DNA of 64,000 bases from Sphagnum compactum (Eukaryota): the NCBI GenBank assembly GCA_965153455.1, contig OZ234493.1:30060213-30124212 (forward strand), given 5' to 3'. The stretch's first letter is position 1. The number at the start of each line of letters is the position of its first letter. Positions 1 to 39,748 of this stretch are shown piece by piece. Made by a program: the position numbers and the translations under genes. The notes under the pieces are model-generated. The model ran no database searches, had not been told where the DNA came from, and worked only from the letters and a program-made list of their open reading frames with translations.

Positions 1-3000
1 CTGCAGGCTTTTGCTTGCAGGTGTCAGGTTGTGGGATAGTGAGTTCTCTCTTCTCTTTGTAAGAGGTTGACTAGGTGGTGCTGCTCGCTCCTGGCCAACA
101 GGCATCACCACTTTCCTGGGTTGCCCTGCTGCATTGAGTAACCTCTGAACAATCACACCTCCACCTGCAGGCACCTTGGATACAGCACCTGTGGCATTGC
201 GCAAGATGCCTGGATTATGAACTGATGTGATGCGATATGAAGATAGGCGCCTGATACTGTTGTTCAATGGAAGCCTGCTGTTGTAGGGAGAAGAGTGGAA
301 AATGCTCTTGGTAGAGAGGTAGGAGGAAGAAGGTTGACAAGCGGAGTTGATGGATAGGCCCCCAAGTGAAGTTTCAATATTCACTGCTTTTCCGGACCTT
401 TGTCCCCCCAACTGTGAGAAACGATCCTGTGCAGGGGTAGGCACAAAGAAAAGCCTTGATTCTCCCGCTCTGATGCTCCCAGGTCCTTCATCCTGGCAAG
501 CAATCCCAAAACACGTTTCACATAAGCAAACTGTGAACAGGCTAACGTAGTACAAAGACTAACTTGCAAATCTGGGGATCCAACCTGACAATGTTGCTGC
601 TGAAGATCAAAGTGATCGTAACATATGGTGCTTAGCCAACTTTGTATCCAAATGTCATATGTGCTGAGAGGTTATGTTGTTCTGTATGCGGGCTGAATGA
701 ATGGTCTTGGATTCAAAGGAAAAGCTTTCAGACCCTCTTGCAAAACTGCCCAGTTTTTTCTCTGAAGGATAGGAAACCTCCAAAAATGGCACCAACTACA
801 AGGAACATGCACCACCAAACAACTGGAACAATTAAATACTAATCATCTCATGTAAGAGCAAGGATGTAGCACCTCAGATGTTTCATCCCTCAAAGCTGAT
901 ATCTTCAACTGTTGTGGAGGTGACCTTGGAGTGGTGTGGTCTTGGAGCCTAGCTACTCCACCCTTCCAATTCTGACCAAAACCACTGGTCCCATGGATTT
1001 CCTGCCACTTGTAAACAGGGTAGTGAGACCAGGGCTCCATCATGGATCAGTTCTCTCCCTACTTCAATCTGAACACATGCTTGACAGAACTAACTACGGA
1101 GATTCAATTATTGGAAACTGGCATGCATGGTTGTTGAGTAGCATGTATTGTGATAACAATTGTTTGAATCAATTACAAACTCTTCCCCTGAAAGAGTTCT
1201 CCTTTGTGGTGTAAGCCTTGTTAAATCTCCCCAACTGACCACAAATCCAAATCATGTTAAACATGGTTATCTCCTTATCTGGTTCCATTTTGCTCATAAC
1301 TTTTCAGCCCCTTGGCTTGGATCATCATATTTTAGCTGTCTGCAATGGTGCACTTGTTCAAAGTAGCACTATGCTTATTGCTAGATATATCCAGTACCAG
1401 AAGCTGCCTTCTGTGAGGAATTCTCTCATAGGAAGACTGGCCAGAGAAGTTTTCTGTCATCACTCACCCTGCCTTGAGCATTATCTCTTCCAAGAACACG
1501 ATTTGCAGTGTACTTTTTGGATGCTAAAAGATTATTGTTTCCCTGTGTCCAAGCAGCTCCTCCAGCATTTGGTGTTGAAGATGGAGATGGTACCCCAGTC
1601 ACGCTTCCAGGCTGATTTGGCAATATGGGCACAACAGTGTCTTGCACTGACTTCGGAAAAACTTGACAGCTGTTCATGTTTCTTACTACCTTCTGATTCC
1701 GCATTGCATCACCCTGCACAAAAGAACCCTTCCAAATTCAGCCCTTGATTGAAGAGTAGATAACCAGGTGTGATTTTCTCCGAGAGTCCACAAAAAATGA
1801 GGTAGAGAGAAAGAGCTGCACAGAACAAAAAAATACATTATAGATTTCATCATCCATCACAAAACCAGCCTGCAGCAGCCAGTGGTAACCACAGTCCATC
1901 CTAACATGGCTTTTATAAGCTCCATAAATGTCCCGGGGGAGCTTAGATGGAGCACAAACTTATGTTGGCTTAGTTCAGCCAACTAAGACAGATGCTGGCA
2001 AGCAGAATTTCAGGTGTTTATGGCAGACAGAAGTTTATTGTCACCAGCTAAATTCTGGACCATGCTAAGAGTTACTGAATAGAGATCCCAAGGATAGAGA
2101 AGCTCAAATGGATTCCGATTTTCTCAAGCTTGAATAAGACTGAGGATAACAGTGGCATCCTTACTGCTTTCCACATGCGAACTTGAATATCTCGCAAAAA
2201 ATGCTGTTGGGGCCCAATCACACTGCCAGGCCTCACAATGCGCAAATAACCCAATGCCTATGCCCAAGATGTGATCCCCCAAGAAAGTCAAAAACATGTT
2301 TCAGTATTGCTGCTTCATGCTTAAAGTAGTTGAGTCCCTGCAATTGAATACATCATCAGTACACAGTTTCAACTGTAGTATCCCACTAGCAAGGATGCAG
2401 CACATGCACAGGTAGTGACAAAGAGAGAACAGATTTAGGAATAAAGTGAGGATCTTAGCATTCAATGATCAAATCAGACAGAAGACAAATGAGGACATAG
2501 ACAAGTGAGTTGCACCTCATTGCATGTAAACTTGTAGTGCTTCATGATGTAGCAGCCAATCAGCACACCAGTCCGGCCCAAACCTGCCTGCACATACCCA
2601 AAAAGTCTTCATCTGCTGCATTCAACCCCACTAATTGCCCTGTCTGATTTTATTAACAACTCACCCAAACAGCAACAGAAAAAAGGGATTCCTCTGGTGA
2701 AATACATGGAGAAGGGCCAAAATGGGAAGCTTGCAGTCATATACAATCATGTCAACAATTGCCAGAACAATTGAACAATTTTGAAGGCATTCATTAAAAA
2801 CAACATTGATGATGTTTAACAGATCTGACTAACCAATCACAAGTTTCTACAAACAGGATGCTAACCCAAGAAGGCAAAACTGTGGAGTACTTAAGTATGA
2901 TTACTTCCATGACCAAGAGACAGCTTACTTTACAGTGCACTGCTAATGCTCCAGAGGTACCCTCTACAATCTCAAGGAATCGCTTGACAATTCGCTCAGG

Positions 3001-6000
3001 TGGGCAGCTGCACAAGCAAGCAAAAAGACAAGCATCATTCATTAGAATTACACTCTAGTGCCAATTGAGATAAAAGGTCAAGAGAGTCGATCACAGGATT
3101 GGAGGTCAAAGACCTGTAGGACACTGATGTCACTATCCCTGACTTTCTGAACCCTCATCCAAGACTTGATCACACTAAATGTTGAAATCTGGGTCTGGAA
3201 AAATCACTTTAAATAACACCAGCATACCAGTCCGGACCAATTTGGGGAAAATCCTAGTTGCAAGAGAACAAATTGCAAACATGGATACAGTGTATGGAGA
3301 GCCATCAATGACAATTTGTGTGCCAAATCCCAACAAATGGAATCCAATCCTCTCAAGGTCAACTAATTGGAGAGAACAGTTTTAAGGCTATATACTTGTT
3401 CCTAACACATTTTAAGGCTACATAGGAGAAGCAACTGGAAGAGACCAAGTTGTTCGACATAATCTAAATGTGGGACTCCAATACTCAAGTCTGATTAAAT
3501 CCACATTCACAAGACCTACACACTTAACACTTCATGCCCATACAGATAGTTAAAGGAAAGAAAATTCAGTAAGAGGCATGAAAGGCTAATATAAAGAATT
3601 GACCTACAGGTTGCTAAGAGCAAAACATAAATATCTCTGCTCAAACATGCATTCTTTTCCCCACTTTTTCTCACAAGATTCCCACTGCATACCTAGCAGA
3701 GTTTCCAGATTTTATAGTGGATTCCATGAGCTAAAGCATTTTAGATAGTTTTCAGGTAATAGTTTCAGATCAGGGCATCATTAAACACCTGCTTTCTGGG
3801 CCTAGAAAACCCCTAGGCAAGTGAACACAGACCTGCCATCAGGAAAATATAAATCATAGTGGGAAAGACCATAATCGGTGAAGCGCCGTCTCTCATACAC
3901 TCTTCTATTGAGCCTTATGATGCCGCTGACTCCTATCTGCCACAAAACCAATAAAAAGAACAACTTTACCTTACTGAGATCTCACCCATTAAAAAGAACA
4001 CTGGACAATGTGAAATCTACACCAAGATTAAAGAGTAAAAAAATGGAGCAAGAAATACTTTGTCCACACCAAGACCTGAGACTACTCAGGAGAATAGCTC
4101 AGGTGATTTACACATCCACAGCCACATCAAAAGGGAAAAGAAAACAAACCTGCTGAAAATACTCCACATAATCTTCTGGTACCAAGGTCCTGTACCCATA
4201 GATCTGCAAAAACCATATGTGAGCAGGTTCAGGCTGTAGTATGCACCATGACAGAAATAATACAGGGACATTAATTAGGAAGAATGGCTGACACTGGCAG
4301 CACAAATGACAATAAAACTGACATCAGTGCTTTACAGAGCAAGCCAGACAAGTTTTCACAGTTTTTCAATGCTTGAAATGACAGGCATGGACATACAGGT
4401 TTAGTTTTGAACAAGAACCTCCAAGCGTCTTGCTGATGGTCCACTAAAAGCCACAAGCTTACCAGGAACCATCCAATTCAAGTCTCCATTTTTTACCTGC
4501 CAGGCATCCAATTGATTGATTGTCCATTTGCAAACCATTTGCACAAGGGCTCACAGGAGTGCCCATCAGTCTCAAGTATTATTGCTGGTGCTTCAAAAGA
4601 ACTCTGATCCTGGCACTAGTAAAGTATTGCAATGTAAGCTACTCAGACCTTCTTGTGGAAATCAGCATTACCAAAACTGTCAGTCATGAACTGGTGGACC
4701 TGTGACTTTCACCCTAAGAAAAAACACAATGATGCGTGTGCTTTCAAAGTACAAGGTAATAACCTGTTCAAAATACTCATACTCATCAAGACGGAAATTG
4801 TTGAAGTCAATCCAATCTAGCTTCTGAGCTTTAGATATTGCCTGACCACACAAAAAGCAGCAGCATAATTTGTATAAGGATTTAGGTATAGTAGGTCAGT
4901 ACAATAATGTGACAACTGCCCCCACACATGTGAGCAATTCAGGTTCAGGACCTTCAAGCTCCAGTACAGGAATGCACAGTATAAACCCCTCCTTTGGCCT
5001 CAAGTCTGTAACTTTTGAATAAGTGGGCATGTGCCTCATTTGCCCACTACTGGCACCAGCATAGATGCACATTAAAGCAAGTTGCAAGGAAAAACATGGT
5101 ACCTGGATGCAGTCATATACACTAAGGTGGTATGTGGAAATCCCACAAGTGGGATCCCGAAATGGCATAAATGGCTGGAATCTAGACAATGTTTCATATG
5201 CTGCTGCAGCCTCAACTCCACCAAATAGCACCAGGTAAGCTCCAACCTGCAACCAATAAAAGCTTATGCACCACATACCTAAATTGTCTTCCATGACCTT
5301 CTCAATCCATACCTTTGCTCTCTACAGATATAGTCCCATTTCTAGCACATAAAACATGGACATATCATGTAGGAGAGGGCATGAGAACTTGAAGCTATTT
5401 GAGGATGTAGAAAGGATTTTGGGGGAGTTCATGAAGAGACACCGAGCTAGAGGCATCACATACCAGAACTGCAGCATTTGATTTTTTCTTCGGCTCAGCA
5501 CTGCACCAGAAGAATACACATTGGTTCTGCTCATCTGCTTCCTGACCCCATTGAAACAAGTCAGGACCCACTTCATCTCAGGAGATGAAAGAATATTAAG
5601 TTGTAATTTCAGATTCCAGTAACTTCGTAGTTGTTACAAGATATCCACAGTAGCTTCCCTGACAGAGTTATCTAGTTTTGATCTGCATTTTAAGCTTCAG
5701 AGGTTCCCTTTGCATTAATGAGTGTGCCTTGATAAGCTAAGGCTGATGTTGACATAATTCTAACATAGAAAATAGTGAAAGATCTTCGAGAAAACTTACC
5801 TTAAGAAGTCCATGAAGTTTCCAACAGAATCGATACGTGCAGGCAAGGTTCAATGGTCCAAAGTCTGCAAAAAAAGGTTCATACACCTGCTTGGAATGAC
5901 CACCTCACAAAGTTAATCATAATTGCAGCAAACAGCACTGTTGAACACCCCTGCGGAAGCAAAGGCTCTAGAGATGCAGGTTTCTAAGAAAAATCACATA

Positions 6001-6724
6001 AGAGGATCACATTTGTCCTCTTTTGGATACTGCAATCCTTACTTTCTGGCTCTATCAGATGACATTCTCTTGACAAAACTATTGCAGGACATGAGGTTAC
6101 ACAATTGATCCTGTTGTACAAAATAGATATAATCCTGAACTGCTGAAGTAGATGGGTAGTGGAGTCGAGATACATAAAAGAAAGATCAATTGCGGATGCA
6201 AGAGCAAACATGACTACAAAACTTCTTCTGTGGATTGCAACAAGAGCAGGCTCTCATGAATGCCAAGCATGGCAATTGCCAGCTCCCTCCTGACGATTGG
6301 GTCTCCACTCATGACAAGGATAACTGACATAAAGGAGGCTGAAAAGTTGCTGGCTTTAAGACAATTTGCCACAAAAGGAGGATATTGATCATAGGAGACA
6401 TTGCAAAACTCCCTTCCCAAGCCTTAAGAGGCCGAAGAAGAATAGAGTTCTCTAAGTAGCATTGGGCATCCTCAAGAGATCAACTTCTCCTCAATCCAAG
6501 ATTGCACAAACCTCTTCCATGATTCTTAGACAAAATTCAGAAGACAAAAACATGATTGTGAAAGAAGCATTTACCAGTTCATTATCGATGTTGAAACCGG
6601 AGGCTGGCTTAGGGAGACGATGTACTATGGCAGAGTCTTCAGGACGATTCAGGGGAGCGAAATAGAGCTTGTCTTTCATGATCTCGCTCACGATCACTCC
6701 GCTTTTCTCCGGTCCCGTGCCCAT
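1..6724 (-). CDS. CDC14: CDC14-family dual-specificity protein phosphatase, multi-exon, 3' end beyond the window start
   Basis: GT-AG exons that keep frame: 6724-6575, 5886-5800, 5541-5464, 5246-5103, 4841-4764, 4496-4419, 4203-4150, 3936-3833, 3007-2929, 2587-2516, 2257-2165, 1713-~1468, less certain exon(s) near 870-1000, and 492-<1. The joined peptide has CDC14 motifs [45 protein letters not shown], catalytic VHCKAGLGRTG and [10 protein letters not shown]. Confidence 0.93.
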
Positions 6725-13774: not shown

Positions 13775-13907
13775 ATAGTGGAAGAGCGCATGTGTGAAAT
13801 ATGGTCTACCCCGAAAAAAAATATATACACCAATGAAGACAAGGTATCTCTTTATTTTCACAAAAAAACCTTTTGAAGTTCTTGCACAAAATATATTGGG
13901 CCTACCC

Positions 13908-14174
13908 TGTCATGGCCTAGGATATTTTGGGATACTTTTGGCAATGTCATGTCCTAGGATATTTTTGGATACTTTTGGCAATATCATGGCCTAGGATATT
14001 TTGGGATACTTTTGGCAATATCATGGCCTAGGATATTTTGGGACTAGTATGGCTCAGGGTTATAAAAGGAGATAGTCTGGGGAACAACCCTTTAGCAGAT
14101 CAACACCAGTTGATGGATCAATAAAGCTTGTCTTGTCTTGTAATTCTCCACTTGTTTGTAGTCGGTCCATAACA
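13908..14174 (+). repeat. 5' LTR
   Basis: U3 holds ~3.7 copies of a 37-bp unit TGTCATGGCCTAGGATATTTTGGGATACTTTTGGCAA. TATAAAA at 14061 and AATAAA at 14120. Confidence 0.97.
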
Positions 14175-14315
14175 GTTTGATCTGCTCCTTCTTCTTGTTT
14201 GTTTGTTTTGTTGTTTCAGTAAGTAGCTAGAGGTATATTGGAGTGAAACTTGGAAAGGTTCTAGAAGACTATAGGACGCTTCTACTCTCAAAGTTTCCAA
14301 AGAAAAGGATATGTT

Positions 14316-14658
14316 TTGAGAGAGATCCAAGCATCTGAAGTTTCAAGTGCAGATCTGGTTTTTTGGTCATATCTCCTTTGTGTAAGCTTTTTTGGGTCTG
14401 TAACTTTGTGATCTTATAGATCATATAGGAATATATGTGTGAGAGAAATTTCATGTCATTTGGACTTGTATTGAGAGAGATCCAAGCATCTGAAGTTTCA
14501 AGTGCAGATCTGGTTTTTTGGTCATATCTCCTTTGTTTAAGTTTCTTTCGGTCTGTAACTTTGTGATCTTATAGATCATATAAGAATATATGTGTGAGAG
14601 AAATTTCATGTCATTTGGACTTGTATTGAGAGAGATCCAAGCATCTGAAGTTTCAAGT
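14316..14658 (+). repeat. 155-bp direct repeats in the retrotransposon 5' leader (2 full copies and 1 partial)
   Basis: TTGAGAGAGATCCAAGCATCTGAAGTTTCAAGT starts at 14316, 14471 and 14626. Confidence 0.92.
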
Positions 14659-14696
14659 TTGAAGATTGAAAGCGCAAAAGTGTGAGAATTACCACC

Positions 14697-15671
14697 ATGG
14701 ACAACTCAGAATCCAACATCGATCTCACTCAAATCCTCGCCGCCCTTCAACACCTTCAACAAGAAAATGCCGTGCTTAGAGACTCGGTGACCCGCCTACA
14801 GAATCAGCCACCACCTCCTGCCCCAGTACTTCCTGCTCTTGCAATGGCCGCCCAAGAACCCAAGATCAGTCTGCCAGAAAAGTTTGATGGAACGCGCCTC
14901 AAATTTCGAGGCTTTGTCAGCCAGGTACGCCTGATCATGCAACTACACCCCCGTCGTTATTTTGATAACACCACTCGTGTAGGATTCGTTGGAACCCTAC
15001 TCACTGGGACAGCTGCAGCATGGTTTGCTCCCATCCTGGAAACATCATCCCCTCTTCTACAAGATTTCAACGCCTTTATGGCGGAATTTGAAGCAGTATT
15101 TGGGGACAGTGATAAGGCCAGGACTTCAGCCAACAAGCTGCGTCGCCTCCAGCAAGGGACACGTTCGGCCATCGTCTACGCTTCAGAATTCAGGCAGCTT
15201 GCCTGTGACGTCAATTGGGGAGAAGCTGCCTTGATTGATCAGTTTCGCTGTGGGCTTCGTGATGATGTTCAAGATCTTTTGTTGACACTCGCAGACCCTT
15301 CTTCCTTCAGTGAAGCCATCACCCAGGCAATTCGGTGCGATAATCGTCTGTTCGAACGTCGCCAGGAAAAGAAAGTCACCTCCAACGCCCAGCTTTGGAA
15401 CAGTCGGCCTATTACGCTCCCCTTAGTTCCCCAAACAACACCAGTTGCCCGACCTGCCTCTTTTGGACCTGCTCCGATGCAGATCGACACAGCTAAGTTT
15501 AAATCTTTGACAGAAGCCGAGAAACTTCGCCGAAGGACAAACAATCTATGTCTTTACTGTGGCAACCCAGGGCATATAGCTCGTCAATGCCCTCAAAAGC
15601 TTGTCAAACTTCAGGTACAAGCTGTGGAAACTCCCCAGGAGTTGGAAAACAAGAACATCCAGTCACAGTAG
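14697..15671 (+). CDS. gag: Retrotransposon Gag (PEG10/sushi-like capsid with a CCHC zinc knuckle)
   Basis: ATG in ACCACCATGG context. Motifs PEKFDG, LTGTAAAW, LQQGTRSAIVYASEF, PMQID and CLYCGNPGHIARQC. Uninterrupted ORF. Confidence 0.93.
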   Translation: MDNSESNIDLTQILAALQHLQQENAVLRDSVTRLQNQPPPPAPVLPALAMAAQEPKISLPEKFDGTRLKFRGFVSQVRLIMQLHPRRYFDNTTRVGFVGTLLTGTAAAWFAPILETSSPLLQDFNAFMAEFEAVFGDSDKARTSANKLRRLQQGTRSAIVYASEFRQLACDVNWGEAALIDQFRCGLRDDVQDLLLTLADPSSFSEAITQAIRCDNRLFERRQEKKVTSNAQLWNSRPITLPLVPQTTPVARPASFGPAPMQIDTAKFKSLTEAEKLRRRTNNLCLYCGNPGHIARQCPQKLVKLQVQAVETPQELENKNIQSQ

Positions 15672-18600
15672 GAGCCGTGCGACTGGATCTCACCCAACAC
15701 CACCTTTGCAAAGGCTCCTGTTCCGCTGTTGGTCCCAGTCCCAGTTTCACTCAGTATGTGGACATCATTCGTATTCCAGAAGACATACCACAAGTGTCAG
15801 CTTTGGTGGACTCCGGCGCCACCTCTTCTTTCATCGACCAAACATTTGTCATCCAACACAACATCCCTGTGGTCAAGAAGTCAACCCCTGTTCTGGTAGA
15901 GGTTATTGATGGGAGAACCATTGCTTCTGGTGCAATCACACACGAGACAACCCCTCTAGAACTCTGTATCGGCAAGCACACGGAGAAGATTGTTCTCAAC
16001 ATCATTTCCACCCCTCACCATCCCATCATCCTTGGTCTGCCTTGGCTAGAAGCACACAACCCTATCATTGATTGGCGATCTAGAACCCTCACCTTCAGCG
16101 CACAACGATGCACCTCTCAAGAACCCCACGCTCAGAAAAACAGTTTGTCCAGTCCTGCCAAGAACCCTATGGTCGAGAACCCAAAGAGGGTCGGAACCAA
16201 TTCCAGTTTTATCAAGTCTGTTATGTCAAATCCTGCAGTCAAGAACCCCCGATTGGTCAGAACGAAACCTTGTCCTGTCAAGAATCTTGTCAAGAATTCT
16301 GCCCAAAAAACCAACCATGTCCAGATCTTCGTTGATAGAGCTGTCCCTTTCTATCGGGCTGCTAAGAATCTTCAAGTCTTCGCCATCCATGTCAACCCAG
16401 CCAACACCACAAACCCCCAATCGGAACCAACACCTGTCAAACTTCCCAAGAAGTACAAGGACTTTGTTGATGTTTTTGAAAAGATTAATGCTGATCAGCT
16501 CCCCGCCATAGTCCATATGACTGCCCGATTGATCTAGAAGAAGGACAGTCACCACCCTTTGGTCCTATCTATGGCCTATCGGAACCGGAACTCCAAGCCC
16601 TGCGTGATTACCTTACTGAAAATCTTGCCAAGGGGTTCATTCAGCATTCCAAGTCTCCAGCCGGCGCCCCAATTTTGTTTGTCAAGAAGAAGGATGGCTC
16701 CCTTCGACTTTGTGTGGATTATCGTGGACTCAACAAGATAACCAAAAAGAATCGATATCCTTTGCCCTTGATTTCAGGTCTCCTAGATCGACTACGTACC
16801 GGGAAGATCTTCACCAAGCTTGACCTCCGTGGAGCCTACAACTTACTCAGGATTCGCCCTGGTGATGAATGGAAGACAGCTTTCCGCACACGCTATGGCC
16901 ACTTCGAATACACGGTCATGCCCTTCGGCCTCACCAATGCACCCGCAATCTTTCAGCATCTGATGAATGATATCTTCCGGGATTACATGGACGAATTTGT
17001 CGTGGTCTATTTGGATGACATTTTAATCTTTTCCAAGGACCAGGAAACCCACGACAAACATGTACGATTGGTGCTTGCGACGCTGCGGGAGCATGGCTTA
17101 TACGCCAAGTTGGAAAAATGTGAATTCGACAAATCTTCAGTGGCGTTCCTTAGCTACGTGATCTCTCCAGATGGCATTTTCATGGACAAGTCAAAGGTCG
17201 AGACCATCCAGTGTTGGGCTACTCCATCCTCGGTCAAGGACGTTCAACGCTTCCTAAGGTTTGCCAACTTCTATCGTCGGTTTATCAAAGGCTATTCCAA
17301 GATCACAACACCGTTAATAACCCTGACTTGCAAAGACAAGCCCTTCTCGTGGAATCCAACGGCCCAGGTTGCTTTTGATACTCTCAAGATGGCATTCACC
17401 TCTGCACCCATCCTGATACATCCCGATCCTACCAAGCCATTAATTGTGAAAACAGACGCTTCAGATTTTGCCTTGGGAGCTATTCTATCTCAATTTGGAA
17501 TAGATGGGTTGCTGCATCCAGTTGCTTTCTATTCACGGAAGTTAACCAGTGCCGAAATCAACTACCAGGTCTACGATAAGGAACTCCTGGCAATCATCAC
17601 GGCATTCGAGCAGTGGAGACCGTATCTTGCCGGAGCTCAACATCGAGTCCAAGTTCTGACAGATCACAAGAATCTCCTTTATTTCACAACTACTCGGACC
17701 TTAAATCGTCGCCAGGCACGCTGGTCTATCTTCCTAGCTGATTTCGACTTTGAGATTCAGTATCAACCCGGCACCCAGCAAGGGAAAGCTGACGCGCTAT
17801 CTCGTCGTTCAGAATATGAACTTCGAGCGGGGGATGAGGCTTACGGCCAGCAGAACCAGACTTTACTCAACCCCAAGCAATTTCGAGTTGCAGCAACAAT
17901 CAGCACCCTCCCAGACTCATACCTTGTCAGGGACATCAAGATAGCAACTGAGGAAGACACCTGGGCTACCAACATCAAGAAGGAACTCCAGGAACGACCA
18001 AGGAACCCAAATCGTGATGACTTGGATCAATTTGAGCAGCAAGACGGACTTCTCCTTCGAAATAACCTGATTTATGTACCCGAAGGACTTATACGCCTAA
18101 AAATCCTGAGGGAATGCCACGACAACACCCTGGCAAGTCACTTTGGAATGGCACGGACTCACGAACTAGTGTCAAGGACTTACTGGTGGCCCAAAATGAA
18201 CAAGATGCTACGGGAGTATGTCAAGTCTTGTGATACATGTGCTCGATCCAAGGCTCCCAGGCATCGCCCGTTTGGACTCCTACAGCCTCTGTCGATTCCT
18301 AGCCGACCTTGGGGATCTATTGCAATGGACTTCATCACGGACCTCCCTACTGTCAGAACCAAGAATTCAATACTGGTTGTGGTCGATCGACTCACCAAAA
18401 TGGCCCATTTCACCCCTTGTTCCAAGTCAATCACGGCAGAAGAGACAGCTCAGTTAATTCTGGACGGGATCGTCCGACTGCATGGACTCCCCGAAGAAAT
18501 TGTGTCCAACAGAGGTCCTCAGTTTGCATCCAAGTTCTGGCATCGTCTATTCGAGCTTCTTGGAGTTGACATTCGGCTATCTTTAGCTTTCCACCCTGAG

Positions 18601-19401
18601 ACAAATGGACAAACTGAACGGACAAACCAGACACTCGAGCAATACCTTCGCTGCACTGTGAACTACCAACAGGACGACTGGCTGGACCTACTATCTCAAG
18701 CAGAGTTTGTTTATAATAACACAACACATGCATCGACCGGGATCAGTCCATTCTTTGCCAATTACGGTTTTCATCCCAGGTTCAGCCTTGAAATTCCTGG
18801 AGACTTCGTAAACCCCTCGGCTGAAGAAAGGGCCACGAGGCTTGGACAGGTTCAACAGAACCTTATGGCAGAACTCAAGCTAACACAGGAGTGACAAAAG
18901 AAGCAAGCAGACCGCCGACGCAAGGACCATCCAAACTTCAAGGTTGGAGACAAGGTCTGGCTTCTCAGAAAGAACATTGCTACCACTCGCCCATGTGCCA
19001 AGTTGGATTACAAGCGCCTCCGACCTTTCAAAATCGCCAAATTGGTTGGTCTAGTGGCTTGCCAGTTGGAGCTTCCACCCCAGTTCAAAATCCACAATGT
19101 TTTCCATGTCTCCCTGCTTGAACCCTATCATGAAAACCCGATCCCAGAACGTCATCAAGAACCCCCAGCTCTAGTCGAAATTGAAGGCCAAGAAGAGTTT
19201 GAAGTTCAGGAGGTCTTGGACTCCAAGAAGATTCGTGGAAAGCTCCTGTACCTTGTCTTTTGGCGAGGTTATCCTCCTTCTGAAGCTACTTGGGAGCCTG
19301 CTGGAAACCTAGTTCATGCCCAAGACTTAGTTAATCGGTTTCACCAACGATATCCTAACAAACCGGCTCCATCTAGAAGATGTCCCTTGAGGAGAGGATA
19401 A
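15644..19401 (+). pseudogene. pol: Retrotransposon Pol (protease, RT, RNase H, integrase, chromodomain) with a frameshift and a nonsense codon
   Basis: Motifs ALVDSGAT (PR), LRLCVDYRGLN and VYLDDILIF (RT), TDASDFALG (RH), H-H-C-C zinc finger, IAMDFITDLP (IN), and EFEVQEVLD...YLVFWRGYPPSEATWEP (chromodomain). A 1-nt deletion lies near 16501-16507 and an in-frame TGA at 18892. Confidence 0.93.
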
Positions 19402-19668
19402 TGTCATGGCCTAGGATATTTTGGGATACTTTTGGCAATGTCATGTCCTAGGATATTTTGGGATACTTTTGGCAATATCATGGCCTAGGATATTTTGGGA
19501 TACTTTTGGCAATATCATGGCCTAGGATATTTTGGGACTAGTATGGCTCAGGGTTATAAAAGGAGATAGTCTAGGGAACAACCCTTTAGCAGATCAACAC
19601 CAGTTGATGGATCAATAAAGCTTGTCTTGTCTTGTAATTCTCCACTTGTTTGTAGTCGGTCCATAACA
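19402..19668 (+). repeat. 3' LTR
   Basis: 265/267 identical to the 5' LTR and followed by the TSD TACCC. Confidence 0.97.
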
Positions 19669-20514
19669 TACCCATCTTGATGTGGTACTGTTGGGAACCA
19701 CTTCACTGAAATCCAAAAAAAGGTGGACCTAGTCTAATTTAATTAAAGAAATTTAATGTTTTTAAATTTTCATTTTTATTGTTGATTTGCATCGTGTGGG
19801 TTTTTTGTTCCCCACCTATGTGTACACACTATGGAAAAATGGTTGACACTTACATAAGTTACACAATTTTGTGTTAAGAAATTTGTGTTCCTAAAATGTT
19901 CATGACATCATGTGTTCTTGAAATTTTTGACCCCTTATCATTAAGTGTCAAGTTGCACCATTGTGTGTGTGTGTGTGTGTGTGTACTATAATATTTAGGG
20001 TATGGCCCCAATTGTTGATTGAAATAAAAAAATGGGAATTACTACAAATTTGTAGAAATGAATGTAATGGTCCTTCAAAACCAAGCCTATTTTTAACCTT
20101 CAGAAATTGCTCAAAAATATATGATTGCTTCAATCCATTATTTATTAATCAAATAAAAAAGAGGACCATATTAGTCCCTATTGGAATTTTAAAGCCTTAA
20201 AAAAACTGAAAAAACGTATTCCTTTTGTGTTCATGAACAAAAGAACCTAAAGTGTTACTTTCTTGAAAAAAATTCCTTGAGCACTCATTTGGAATATTAA
20301 AATTTATGTTTTTGATATCTAGTTAAATTTAAAATTCCACATGACTTGGGTAATCTTTTGATATAAAATTTCAAGCAAAAAAATTTCTTTAAATGAGTCT
20401 AATCATGTTGTCCTGAAATTAAACGGGTTTAAGAAATTTGGGTTGTGACATTGCTAATGGTGTCACCCAAGGATGGGTTTGCCTTAATCTAACCTTTCGT
20501 TTTTGCCTTTATAT

Positions 20515-37800: not shown

Positions 37801-39748
37801 CTGGTGTTACTCTGTTGCTAAACTGTACCCTCACAGGGCTAAGATGATTTTTCTCACAGGAAGAGCATCCAGAGAGTCATGGAAGCAATTGATGGATGCC
37901 TGCTTTGAAAGAATTCAAGCATACATTACAGACGGCTATGGAAAAGACAACACAAGCAGCCTCACGTATCTGTTTTTGTCCTTCTTTGGGCAGGTACATT
38001 TGTTGCACTTGCACATAAGACCTCCTCCCTAATGCAGTATTGTCACAGGGGACTAGATTACTGCAATCATGAGTAGTGGATATGGCATCGTGTACATCAT
38101 CTTGGGGTTCATCAGAAAACTCAAAATCCTAGATGTAAGGCAAAGGAGAGCTCAATTTAAGACCAGGGGTGTGAATGTAGTTTGCTTCTGTGAAAAACCT
38201 GTGGAGCAAAGGGTTGGCTGTGTCAACCTTCACAGGAGAATGGAGAGACAATGCATTGAAGAACAAATGTTATCCCATGATGGTGTGTCACTTCTCTTTC
38301 CTCTGTGAACTATGTATTTCTGTCACTCTGCAATCGGCTGGTTTCTAAAGCCTTCTTTGGAAAGCACCATTGGTCAATAATATGTAATATATAGTTTGCA
38401 GCTGGTTCTGTTGAATATAACGTCACCTGCATCTCTGAATGAATGGATTGTGCTGTGCTAAATGATTCTCTCAAATTTGGTAAATTTCTCACAGGTGGAG
38501 GATCCATTTGATCGGAGTGAGAATTGTGCAAGATCAGTGCAAGATTTCAGCCTGCCCATGATATGTGACACTTTTGTCCGGACTGCTGAGGCCTTATTGC
38601 ACCCACCTCATCGGACTAGTCTTGAAAGCTTACGGATTAACCTATTTTGCTGGCCGCCTGGTCACCAAAAACCAGGGGTTCATTTGCAACAGTTTCCTCC
38701 CTCTGGTTCCTTATTTTGGAAGTTCAGGGGGGAACAGCGGAAACCTTGGAAGTCAAAAGGGGAACAATATAATCAACAACAGAAGAACCAATCAAGGATA
38801 GAAAGTCAAAGGGGAAGGAGGGCTTCTTTTGAAGTAAAAGAGCTGCATGCTTCTTCCAGCTTGTTGCTGGACAGCACCTCTGAATTGATGTCAAAGGCAG
38901 AGGGAGGGAGGGAGTTGCCTGAAGCTGTAGATGACAATCACTGGCCTTCTCTTTCAGTTGTGGGTTATTCTGAGAGTGCTAATGCCATACTGATGCCAGA
39001 CCAAGTAGCTGGTATCTCACATGAAAGGGCAGGTATAGATGGGAAAGATGGAGAGCTTATTGTTGCTGAAGCACCTGTCAAAACAAGTGCAAAGTTCAAA
39101 CAGAAACCCCAAGGTAAGAAGAAAAGTGCAGACCAGTGGGCCAAATCTGCTGAACAATGGGTTAGTTCTCATAATTTGCAAACACTCACAATCTCTAGTG
39201 AGTCAGGTACTGCCTCAACACGTCTAGAAGAGCTGAGCACAGGGATACCAATTACATCTAAGGTCCTCAAGGTAGATGAATTGCAACAACAACAAGCAAC
39301 AGAGTTGTCAGAAAGTGGAACACTAGGTGAGGGGAGCAATCCATCCAATTCTGCAGGTGGCCTGCCATTGGAATCAAAACCTTCTGAGCTCCAAAGACCT
39401 TTCCAACAGAGGTCAGCACGACAACGGAGGTCAGAATCAAGCCAAAAGGGAAGAGCTGAATCTGGCCAGCCAAAGAAATTGAACAATCAGGTAGCAACTG
39501 CAGGTTACGGTGTGCAAGTATCCAGTGAACTGGGAGGGGAAGTGAACAGGGAAGGATATGAACATGCTGCCAAACCTAAACCAAGATGGAGACCTAGAAG
39601 AAACAAGCGAATGGACTCTGACGGTTTGGAGAGAAACATTCCTAGACCTCAAGATGGAGAAAGAAATCATAGAGCAGGTGACCCTGCAGGCAGGCAAAGT
39701 AACACAACTTGTGGTCACAATCAAATAACACAGTCAGGTTATAGCTAA
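34892..39748 (+). CDS. HESO1: HESO1-like terminal nucleotidyl(uridylyl)transferase with long N- and C-terminal low-complexity extensions
   Basis: Phase-consistent exons: 34892-34925, 35489-36109, 36275-36508, 36631-36798, 36969-37147, 37326-37421, 37665-37737, 37860-37993, 38181-38282, 38495-39748. Motifs PFGSFESNFYTPWGDLDLS, HARVPLL, CDVSVDN, KCWAKAHSINDPKMGTLNS and VEDPFDRSENCAR. The first two exons are less certain. Confidence 0.88.

Follow-up and report, generated by a model that had tools for sequence, protein, structure and literature searches.

Introduction

Ribosomal frameshifting of the programmed -1 type (-1 PRF) at the gag-pol junction is textbook knowledge for retroviruses, as it is for numerous Ty3/gypsy elements of animals and fungi. 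Here we analysed a 64,000-nucleotide (nt) stretch of the genome of the moss Sphagnum compactum (GenBank assembly GCA_965153455.1, contig OZ234493.1, positions 30,060,213 to 30,124,212 of the forward strand), which is referred to as the window and whose own numbering is used throughout. It contains a Ty3/gypsy long terminal repeat (LTR) retrotransposon in which pol lies in the -1 frame to gag, and the junction of the two carries a predicted slip site, G_GAA_AAC, followed by a predicted RNA structure.

The closest described system is PEG10, a gene derived from a sushi-type element, for which published descriptions give the slip site GGGAAAC and an H-type pseudoknot of compact form whose loop 1 contains the gag stop codon (PMC13622457, PMC11299033); the original prediction for this DNA, made from the letters alone, had also named PEG10, with G_GGA_AAC plus a pseudoknot. 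Like PEG10/Edr, the moss element has its site where gag meets protease in the Tf1/sushi lineage, with A_AAC as the A-site part. For the moss, an H-type pseudoknot enclosing the gag stop in its first loop, as in PEG10, is predicted from complementarity and partial covariation. The two differ in the heptamer, which is G_GGA_AAC in PEG10/Edr and G_GAA_AAC in the window element, and in their nature, PEG10 being a domesticated mammalian host gene and the window sequence a mobile element of a moss; the comparison is with PEG10 as described in publications.

The heptamer G_GAA_AAC itself has been proposed as a slip site in double-stranded RNA viruses, namely the fusagraviruses FpV2 and FpV3, papaya meleira virus and dipteran toti-like viruses (PMC4881467, PMC3832450). 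According to these accounts, the identical heptamer lies at the end of ORF1 (ORF, open reading frame) and would give -1 access to the polymerase ORF, and there, too, it is only predicted. It differs from the moss site in standing immediately before the stop codon and in belonging to RNA viruses, not to retroelements. Moreover, G_GA is listed in a 2016 review of recoding as a natural variant of the X_XX part in dianthoviruses, insect-specific flaviviruses and mesoniviruses, where the P-site codon re-pairs from GAN to GGA as it would in the moss (PMC5009743). These viruses differ from the moss element in their downstream stimulators. The A-site part of their heptamers is of the UUU type.

For plants, the same review states that a 2003 survey of LTR retrotransposons turned up no plant element with pol at -1 (PMC5009743). 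Later work reported overlapping gag and pol ORFs in the Tcn1 clade of mosses and club-mosses, with no account of a signal (PMC2864245, PMC6317226). A search of full-text literature returned no report of -1 PRF signals for any LTR retrotransposon of plants; most subscription journals lay outside its scope, so the absence is unproven. The cassette is not of a new kind, its predicted architecture being that of PEG10 and the sushi elements.

A predicted frameshift cassette at the gag-pol junction

At the level of the family to which the window element belongs, we consider it probable that -1 frameshifting takes place at G_GAA_AAC and is driven by a structure downstream. The parts of the predicted cassette are the following:

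15644..15650, + strand: slip site G_GAA_AAC, in gag register (GAA 15645-47, AAC 15648-50)
15651..15656, + strand: spacer AAGAAC, 6 nt, of the same length in the related elements SM-Tcn1 and L001 (see below)
15657..15664, + strand: 5' arm of stem 1, ATCCAGTC, exact reverse complement of GACTGGAT, 8 bp
15669..15671, + strand: gag stop TAG, inside the stem-1 loop, 18 nt past the heptamer (+19 to +21)
15670..15676, + strand: 5' strand of putative stem 2, AGGAGCC, in the stem-1 loop, exact reverse complement of GGCTCCT
15681..15688, + strand: 3' arm of stem 1, GACTGGAT, extendable by 15678-15679
15713..15719, + strand: 3' strand of putative stem 2, GGCTCCT, 24 nt beyond stem 1

Codons start at 0 mod 3 in gag and at 2 mod 3 in pol, which places pol at -1. 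The protease frame is open from 15503, and its overlap with gag is 169 nt. The frame relation and the overlap were thus as originally predicted, every coordinate of the in-register heptamer and its 6-nt spacer proved right, and both pairings were read in the sequence as perfect complementarities, with the gag stop in the loop. The TAG shares its last two bases with the first two of the stem-2 loop strand. The A-site part of the heptamer, A_AAC, is canonical, and the P-site part is of the G_GA type. It had been called non-canonical, which is correct in so far as it departs from the strict X_XXY_YYZ consensus, but G_GA is a recognised natural variant (PMC5009743).

When 57 in-register heptamers of the overlap were read, none was a canonical X_XXY_YYZ. 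An A or U triplet at the A site was found in four of them, and of these four G_GAA_AAC alone has a stem at PRF distance. Stem 1 can be extended beyond an A.C mismatch (15665/15680) by the pairs C15666-G15679 and A15667-U15678, leaving a loop of 10 nt, and it is this extended form that the hairpin adopts when folded alone, at about -12.2 to -12.8 kcal/mol. The folding energy of stem 1 is -10.2 to -12.8 kcal/mol and that of the stem-2 duplex about -15 kcal/mol; energies of the pseudoknot are sums of such separately folded parts. When the 110 nt that follow the heptamer were shuffled with dinucleotides preserved, a perfect 8-bp stem beginning 5-8 nt downstream and having a 6-20 nt loop occurred in 217 of 200,000 cases, and the same stem together with a 7-nt pairing between the loop and the downstream sequence in 8 of 200,000. 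The combined motif was found at 5 independent places, this site included, among about 127,760 positions on both strands of the 64-kb window. A search of 15500-15850 against Rfam gave no family above chance, its sole match having E = 2.1.

In the proposed mechanism, ribosomes translating gag would arrive at G_GAA_AAC with the P site occupied by tRNA-Glu, on GAA, and the A site by tRNA-Asn, on AAC, while stem 1 (8 bp, or 10 if the extension past one mismatch is included) would be located 6 nt downstream, at the mRNA entry channel. Stem 2 would most likely add to it, the 7 loop nucleotides pairing with 15713-15719 to form an H-type pseudoknot with the gag stop in the first loop. A minority of the ribosomes would slip back by one base, tRNA-Glu exchanging GAA for GGA, so that the middle P-site position becomes a G.U pair, and tRNA-Asn exchanging AAC for AAA, with the first two A-site positions kept. 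Shifted ribosomes would read ...ELEN-QEHPVTVGAV... into the protease, reverse transcriptase (RT), RNase H, integrase and chromodomain, and the others would end at UAG 15669-71 and release Gag, which would result in a Gag-rich ratio of Gag to Gag-Pol. We infer the slippage at 15644-15650, its efficiency, the Gag:Gag-Pol ratio and the formation of stem 2.

Comparison across families

The comparison beyond the family consists of four sequences: SM-Tcn1 of the club-moss Selaginella moellendorffii, which was compared by eye, and the three elements L001, L002 and L003. SM-Tcn1, as given in Additional file 3 of Novikova et al. 2010 (PMC2864245), has gag at 595-1563 of its own numbering and pol at 1473-5186, in the -1 frame. 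It resembles the window element in its length of about 5.7 kb, a gag of 323-324 amino acids, the chromodomain and the T-rich GTTTGAT leader (PMC2864245). The paper reports two ORFs, and neither "frameshift" nor "frame shift" occurs in its main text (PMC2864245).

At the junction, SM-Tcn1 carries the canonical heptamer G_GGA_AAC at 1539-1545 in gag register, where the window has G_GAA_AAC, and a 6-nt spacer follows. Its stem 1 consists of 11 uninterrupted bp (1552-62 with 1573-83), compared with 8 bp in the window, and its 10-nt loop contains UAG at 1564-66, which is +19 to +21 exactly as in the moss. The loop sequence AGGAGCU (1565-71) is complementary to AGCUCCU (1617-23), so that a stem 2 can be drawn with a third loop of 33 nt, against 24 nt in the window. 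Since the two cassettes align gap-free in both reading frames, the paired positions can be compared directly. Compensatory double changes occur at three of the eight shared pairs of stem 1 (window/SM-Tcn1: A-U/G-C at +7, G-C/A-U at +12 and U-A/A-U at +13), and the last pair of stem 2 also differs in a compensatory way, C-G in the moss corresponding to U-A in Selaginella. Of the two changes in each pair, one is synonymous at +7, at +12 and in stem 2, as selection acting on the RNA would lead one to expect; at +13 neither is synonymous.

L001 is an intact element from IMG/VR whose pol is 44% identical, with gag at 1185-2462 and pol at 2342-6190, again at -1. Its heptamer is G_GGA_AAA, a 6-nt spacer leads to a 13-bp stem that contains one bulge, and the stop is at +19 to +21; a 6-nt loop sequence, AGAUCC, is complementary to GGAUCU located 25 nt downstream. 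Its fold was matched by only 2 of 200 shuffles. L002 and L003 are decayed elements with pol 35-37% identical, and the gag-register heptamer of each is G_GGU_UUU. L002 continues with a 5-nt spacer and a 7-bp stem with UAG in its loop, and in L003 the corresponding stem is present only in the centroid fold and absent from the minimum-energy fold. In these three elements the heptamers are canonical, the spacer measures 5-6 nt, and the stop sits in the loop of the stem or in its closing pair. DNA of the sister families, whose gag is 47-61% identical, was not found by tblastn against the loci and the window, in IMG/VR with the gag alignment, or in GTDB genomes.

Conservation within the family and the status of stem 2

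One metagenome scan gave 80 loci of the same family, 78 of which matched over a 501-nt junction region at 87-97% identity (BLAST). The interval 15590-15740 is spanned by 71 loci, and 64 span both of the anchors used to compare reading frames, one of which lost an anchor in the alignment, leaving 63. Conservation of the cassette was counted in 69 loci, that is, the 71 minus two with a 41-nt deletion. Among these 69, the heptamer GGAAAAC is unchanged in 58, stem 1 is fully paired in 47 and stem 2 in 52; heptamer and both stems are all intact in 34, and a stop at the 15669 position is present in 68. The two loci set aside, L038 and L040, have their 41-nt deletion in common (equivalent to 15683-15723); it removes the 3' arms of both stems, and the two form a deletion-derivative lineage.

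Several observations weigh against the proposed frameshift signal or against its second stem. Covariation across family copies, which had been suggested as a check of the prediction, gave no signal beyond the shuffle controls: for the 69 loci, 80 of 500 shuffles attained the covariation score and 214 of 500 the paired fraction, and the family variants are mostly C>T and G>A transitions. The second pair of stem 2 (G15671/15718) is G-C in 28, G.U in 18 and A-U in 4 of 60 distinct rows, and unpaired in 10. Position 15718, the partner of the G of UAG and a site where changes are synonymous in pol, is C in 33, T in 27 and A in 9 of the 69 loci; the A, which leaves this pair mismatched, was likely inherited. 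Because of these second-pair mismatches, the full 7-bp stem 2 is not strictly kept. In addition, conservation of the stem-2 loop strand is in itself no proof of pairing, since the stop codon and a conserved G-A-V in the pol frame also constrain this strand. The comparison with SM-Tcn1, for its part, was made by eye and with a single sequence. Folding with a pseudoknot-free model favours a nested structure that contains stem 2 and lacks stem 1 (-20 kcal/mol, z = -2.0). The efficiency of the shift may also be low, because P-site re-pairing needs the G.U at the middle position. Finally, the support as a whole is at the level of sequence, from which both the frameshifting and the transframe peptide are predicted.

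The nested minimum-energy fold was considered as a stimulator in its own right and was ruled out, as it starts 18 nt past the heptamer and excludes the covarying stem 1.

Overall, stem 1 is well supported by the sequence comparisons, and the pseudoknot-forming stem 2 less firmly. The alternative that survives best is frameshifting at G_GAA_AAC with the stem-1 hairpin as the sole stimulator, stem 2 being unformed or irrelevant. In its favour, all strong comparative support sits on stem 1, and stem 2 has the mismatches at its second pair and the coding constraint on its loop strand. Against it, SM-Tcn1 has a 7-nt complement of its loop at another distance (33 vs 24 nt), within a poorly conserved linker and with U-A in place of the C-G pair, and L001 has its 6-nt complement 25 nt downstream. 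In addition, only 8 of the 217 shuffles that bear a stem 1 have a stem 2 as well. We regard the hairpin acting alone as unlikely, and if frameshifting occurs here, we lean towards the pseudoknot as its stimulator.

Other routes to pol

Pol might instead be reached by a slip at G_ACA_AAC (15536) or T_CAA_AAG (15593) or by independent translation, the structure then serving RNA packaging, dimerisation or stability. The 169-nt overlap does contain these further heptamers with AAA at the A site, and the tie of the shift to 15644 was drawn from sequence. Against this, the alternative sites lie before or within the zinc knuckle of gag and have no stem at PRF distance, and in the relatives canonical heptamers stand at the exact equivalent of 15644, spacer and distance to the stop being the same.

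The gag proteins point the same way. Of 280 gag homologues found, 120 were listed, and 36 near-full-length ones were compared. An [E/G]-N dipeptide followed by exactly six C-terminal residues is present in 27 of the 36; it is E-N in 20 of the 27 bearing the motif and G-N in 7, with S preceding in all 7 of the latter. It follows from this ending that the slip-site dipeptide and the distance to the stop are kept across families with gag 47-61% identical. The E of E-N in these homologues would be encoded by GAA after a G. We consider the other routes to pol very unlikely.

Among the remaining gag homologues, three are truncated or one residue off, and six (P0113, P0119, P0120, P0122, P0123 and P0125) end in ...LNE. 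In these six, gag ends seven residues later, as ...LSQL[ED][DE][VL]LNE, without the [E/G]-N-plus-six ending, and the gag-pol junction of this LNE-type sister group may be organised differently.

The frame offset in family copies

The window copy has two lesions in pol. One is a one-base length difference near 16505, which splits the protease from the RT, and the other is an in-frame stop at 18892-18894, between the integrase core and the SH3 domain. Since the window copy thus has a second frame break and an in-frame stop, the question arises whether the gag-pol offset is itself a product of decay. Both lesions are private: protease and RT are in one frame in all 57 related loci covering the first place, and a sense codon is present in all 13 covering the second. 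The window copy is a recent insertion that is itself dead, and because it carries two private pol lesions, the word functional, as used in the original prediction, is limited to the family, for which the signal is predicted, and does not extend to this copy.

The -1 offset between gag and pol is kept in 48 of the 63 family copies with both frame anchors, and the offset is 1 in 11 and 0 in 4. All 15 changed-offset copies acquired the change through private indels; in each of them a stop still closes the gag frame, which stays separate from that of the protease, and in 12 this stop is at or before 15669-71. Intact copies with gag and pol in one frame, which had been named beforehand as the finding that would speak against the prediction, did not appear; none of the 63 copies has an open gag-pol fusion. 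The gag-to-protease -1 offset is the state of the family and not the result of decay. In a comparison of contigs from three DNA runs, which stand for three organism labels, and one moss metatranscriptome, a single indel row was present within 15300-16700, at 16505, and none at the gag-protease junction, where a missing row is no proof of identity.

That the offset is a decay artefact of a dead copy, with an ancestral single gag-pol ORF and pairings due to chance, can be dismissed as next to impossible: the two pol lesions of the window copy and the premature stops in many family copies would suit it, but the offset is common to 48 of 63 copies with 0 fused, the intact L001 and the annotated SM-Tcn1 share it, and only 8 of 200,000 shuffles yield the motif.

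In many family copies a premature stop falls on one and the same zinc-knuckle codon, equivalent to 15585-15587. It may result from recurrent C>T change at a CHG site or from shared descent. One run, X8, shows a strong surplus of C>T and G>A differences, at 82 and 66 places, respectively.

Origin and implications of the cassette

We tentatively raise the possibility that the cassette goes back to a single ancient RNA element, homologous throughout the Tf1/sushi lineage from mosses and lycophytes to the vertebrate sushi elements behind PEG10, and that G_GAA_AAC became the predominant slip site in mosses, to which the E-N of 20 of the 27 motif-bearing gag homologues would correspond; in our view this is doubtful. 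If it were true, plant ribosomes would shift efficiently despite the G.U pair at the middle P-site position.

The window locus and SM-Tcn1 together offer a concrete and testable -1 PRF cassette for the retroelements of land plants, which would be a natural substrate for studies of -1 frameshifting on plant ribosomes. The cassette would also provide a marker in the debate on where plant Tcn1 elements come from, with ancient retention on one side and transfer from fungi on the other. The understanding of the frameshifting mechanism is unchanged by it.

The host element

The element is 5761 bp long with a GC content of 39%, and a 5-bp target-site duplication (TSD), TACCC, is found at 13903-13907 and 19669-19673, on either side of the two LTRs. 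Its main features are:

13908..14174, + strand: 5' LTR, 267 nt, with TG...CA ends, 99.25% identical to the 3' LTR
14697..15671, + strand: gag ORF from ATG to TAG, 324 codons plus TAG, with a Retrotrans_gag / Ty3_capsid / DUF4939 core and a CCHC zinc knuckle
15650..19401, + strand: pol as it would be read after the shift, with protease (retroviral aspartyl), RT, RNase H, integrase, SH3 domain and chromodomain
19402..19668, + strand: 3' LTR, 267 nt, with a purine-rich tract directly before it

The open reading frame containing gag spans 14670-15671. The homologue P0006 (324 amino acids, 97% identical) is the same gag protein from another source, and Sphagnum magellanicum is the source name on two gag homologues. 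At the C-terminus of the integrase, a Tf2-1-like SH3 domain (PF24626) is followed by a chromodomain (PF00385, E = 9e-15). Contigs of moss metatranscriptomes contain 27-36% of the sampled words of the element, and in one run they span the junction.

From these features, the element is identified as a complete insertion of a Tcn1-like (Tf1/sushi group) Ty3/gypsy chromovirus of moss, the assignment to the Tcn1 clade being made by shared features and by-eye likeness of the RT to the translation of SM-Tcn1. According to Neumann et al. 2019, plant Tcn1 elements are characterised by a 5-bp TSD, a length of about 5.5-9.4 kb and overlapping GAG and PROT-RT-RH-INT frames (PMC6317226); the overlapping arrangement is said there to prevail in the clade, with 149 elements, given as 60%. 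The window element matches the clade in size, 5-bp TSD, chromodomain, overlapping gag and pol ORFs and the T-rich GTTTGAT leader.

A 10-nt sequence at 14177-14186, which starts 2 nt past the 5' LTR, is complementary to 14094-14103 inside the LTR, and the latter stretch is located about 30 nt downstream of a TATA-like box. The complementarity fits Tf1-type self-priming, for which it is a candidate. Self-priming of this type is predicted for 83% of plant Tcn1 elements (PMC6317226).

In the leader between the LTR and gag, a 155-nt segment is tandemly duplicated (14307-14616, 95-97% identity), and the LTR contains internal repeats of about 74 nt. The only other ORF of at least 250 codons in the window is located at 38462-39748 on the + strand; it has 428 codons and no Pfam match.

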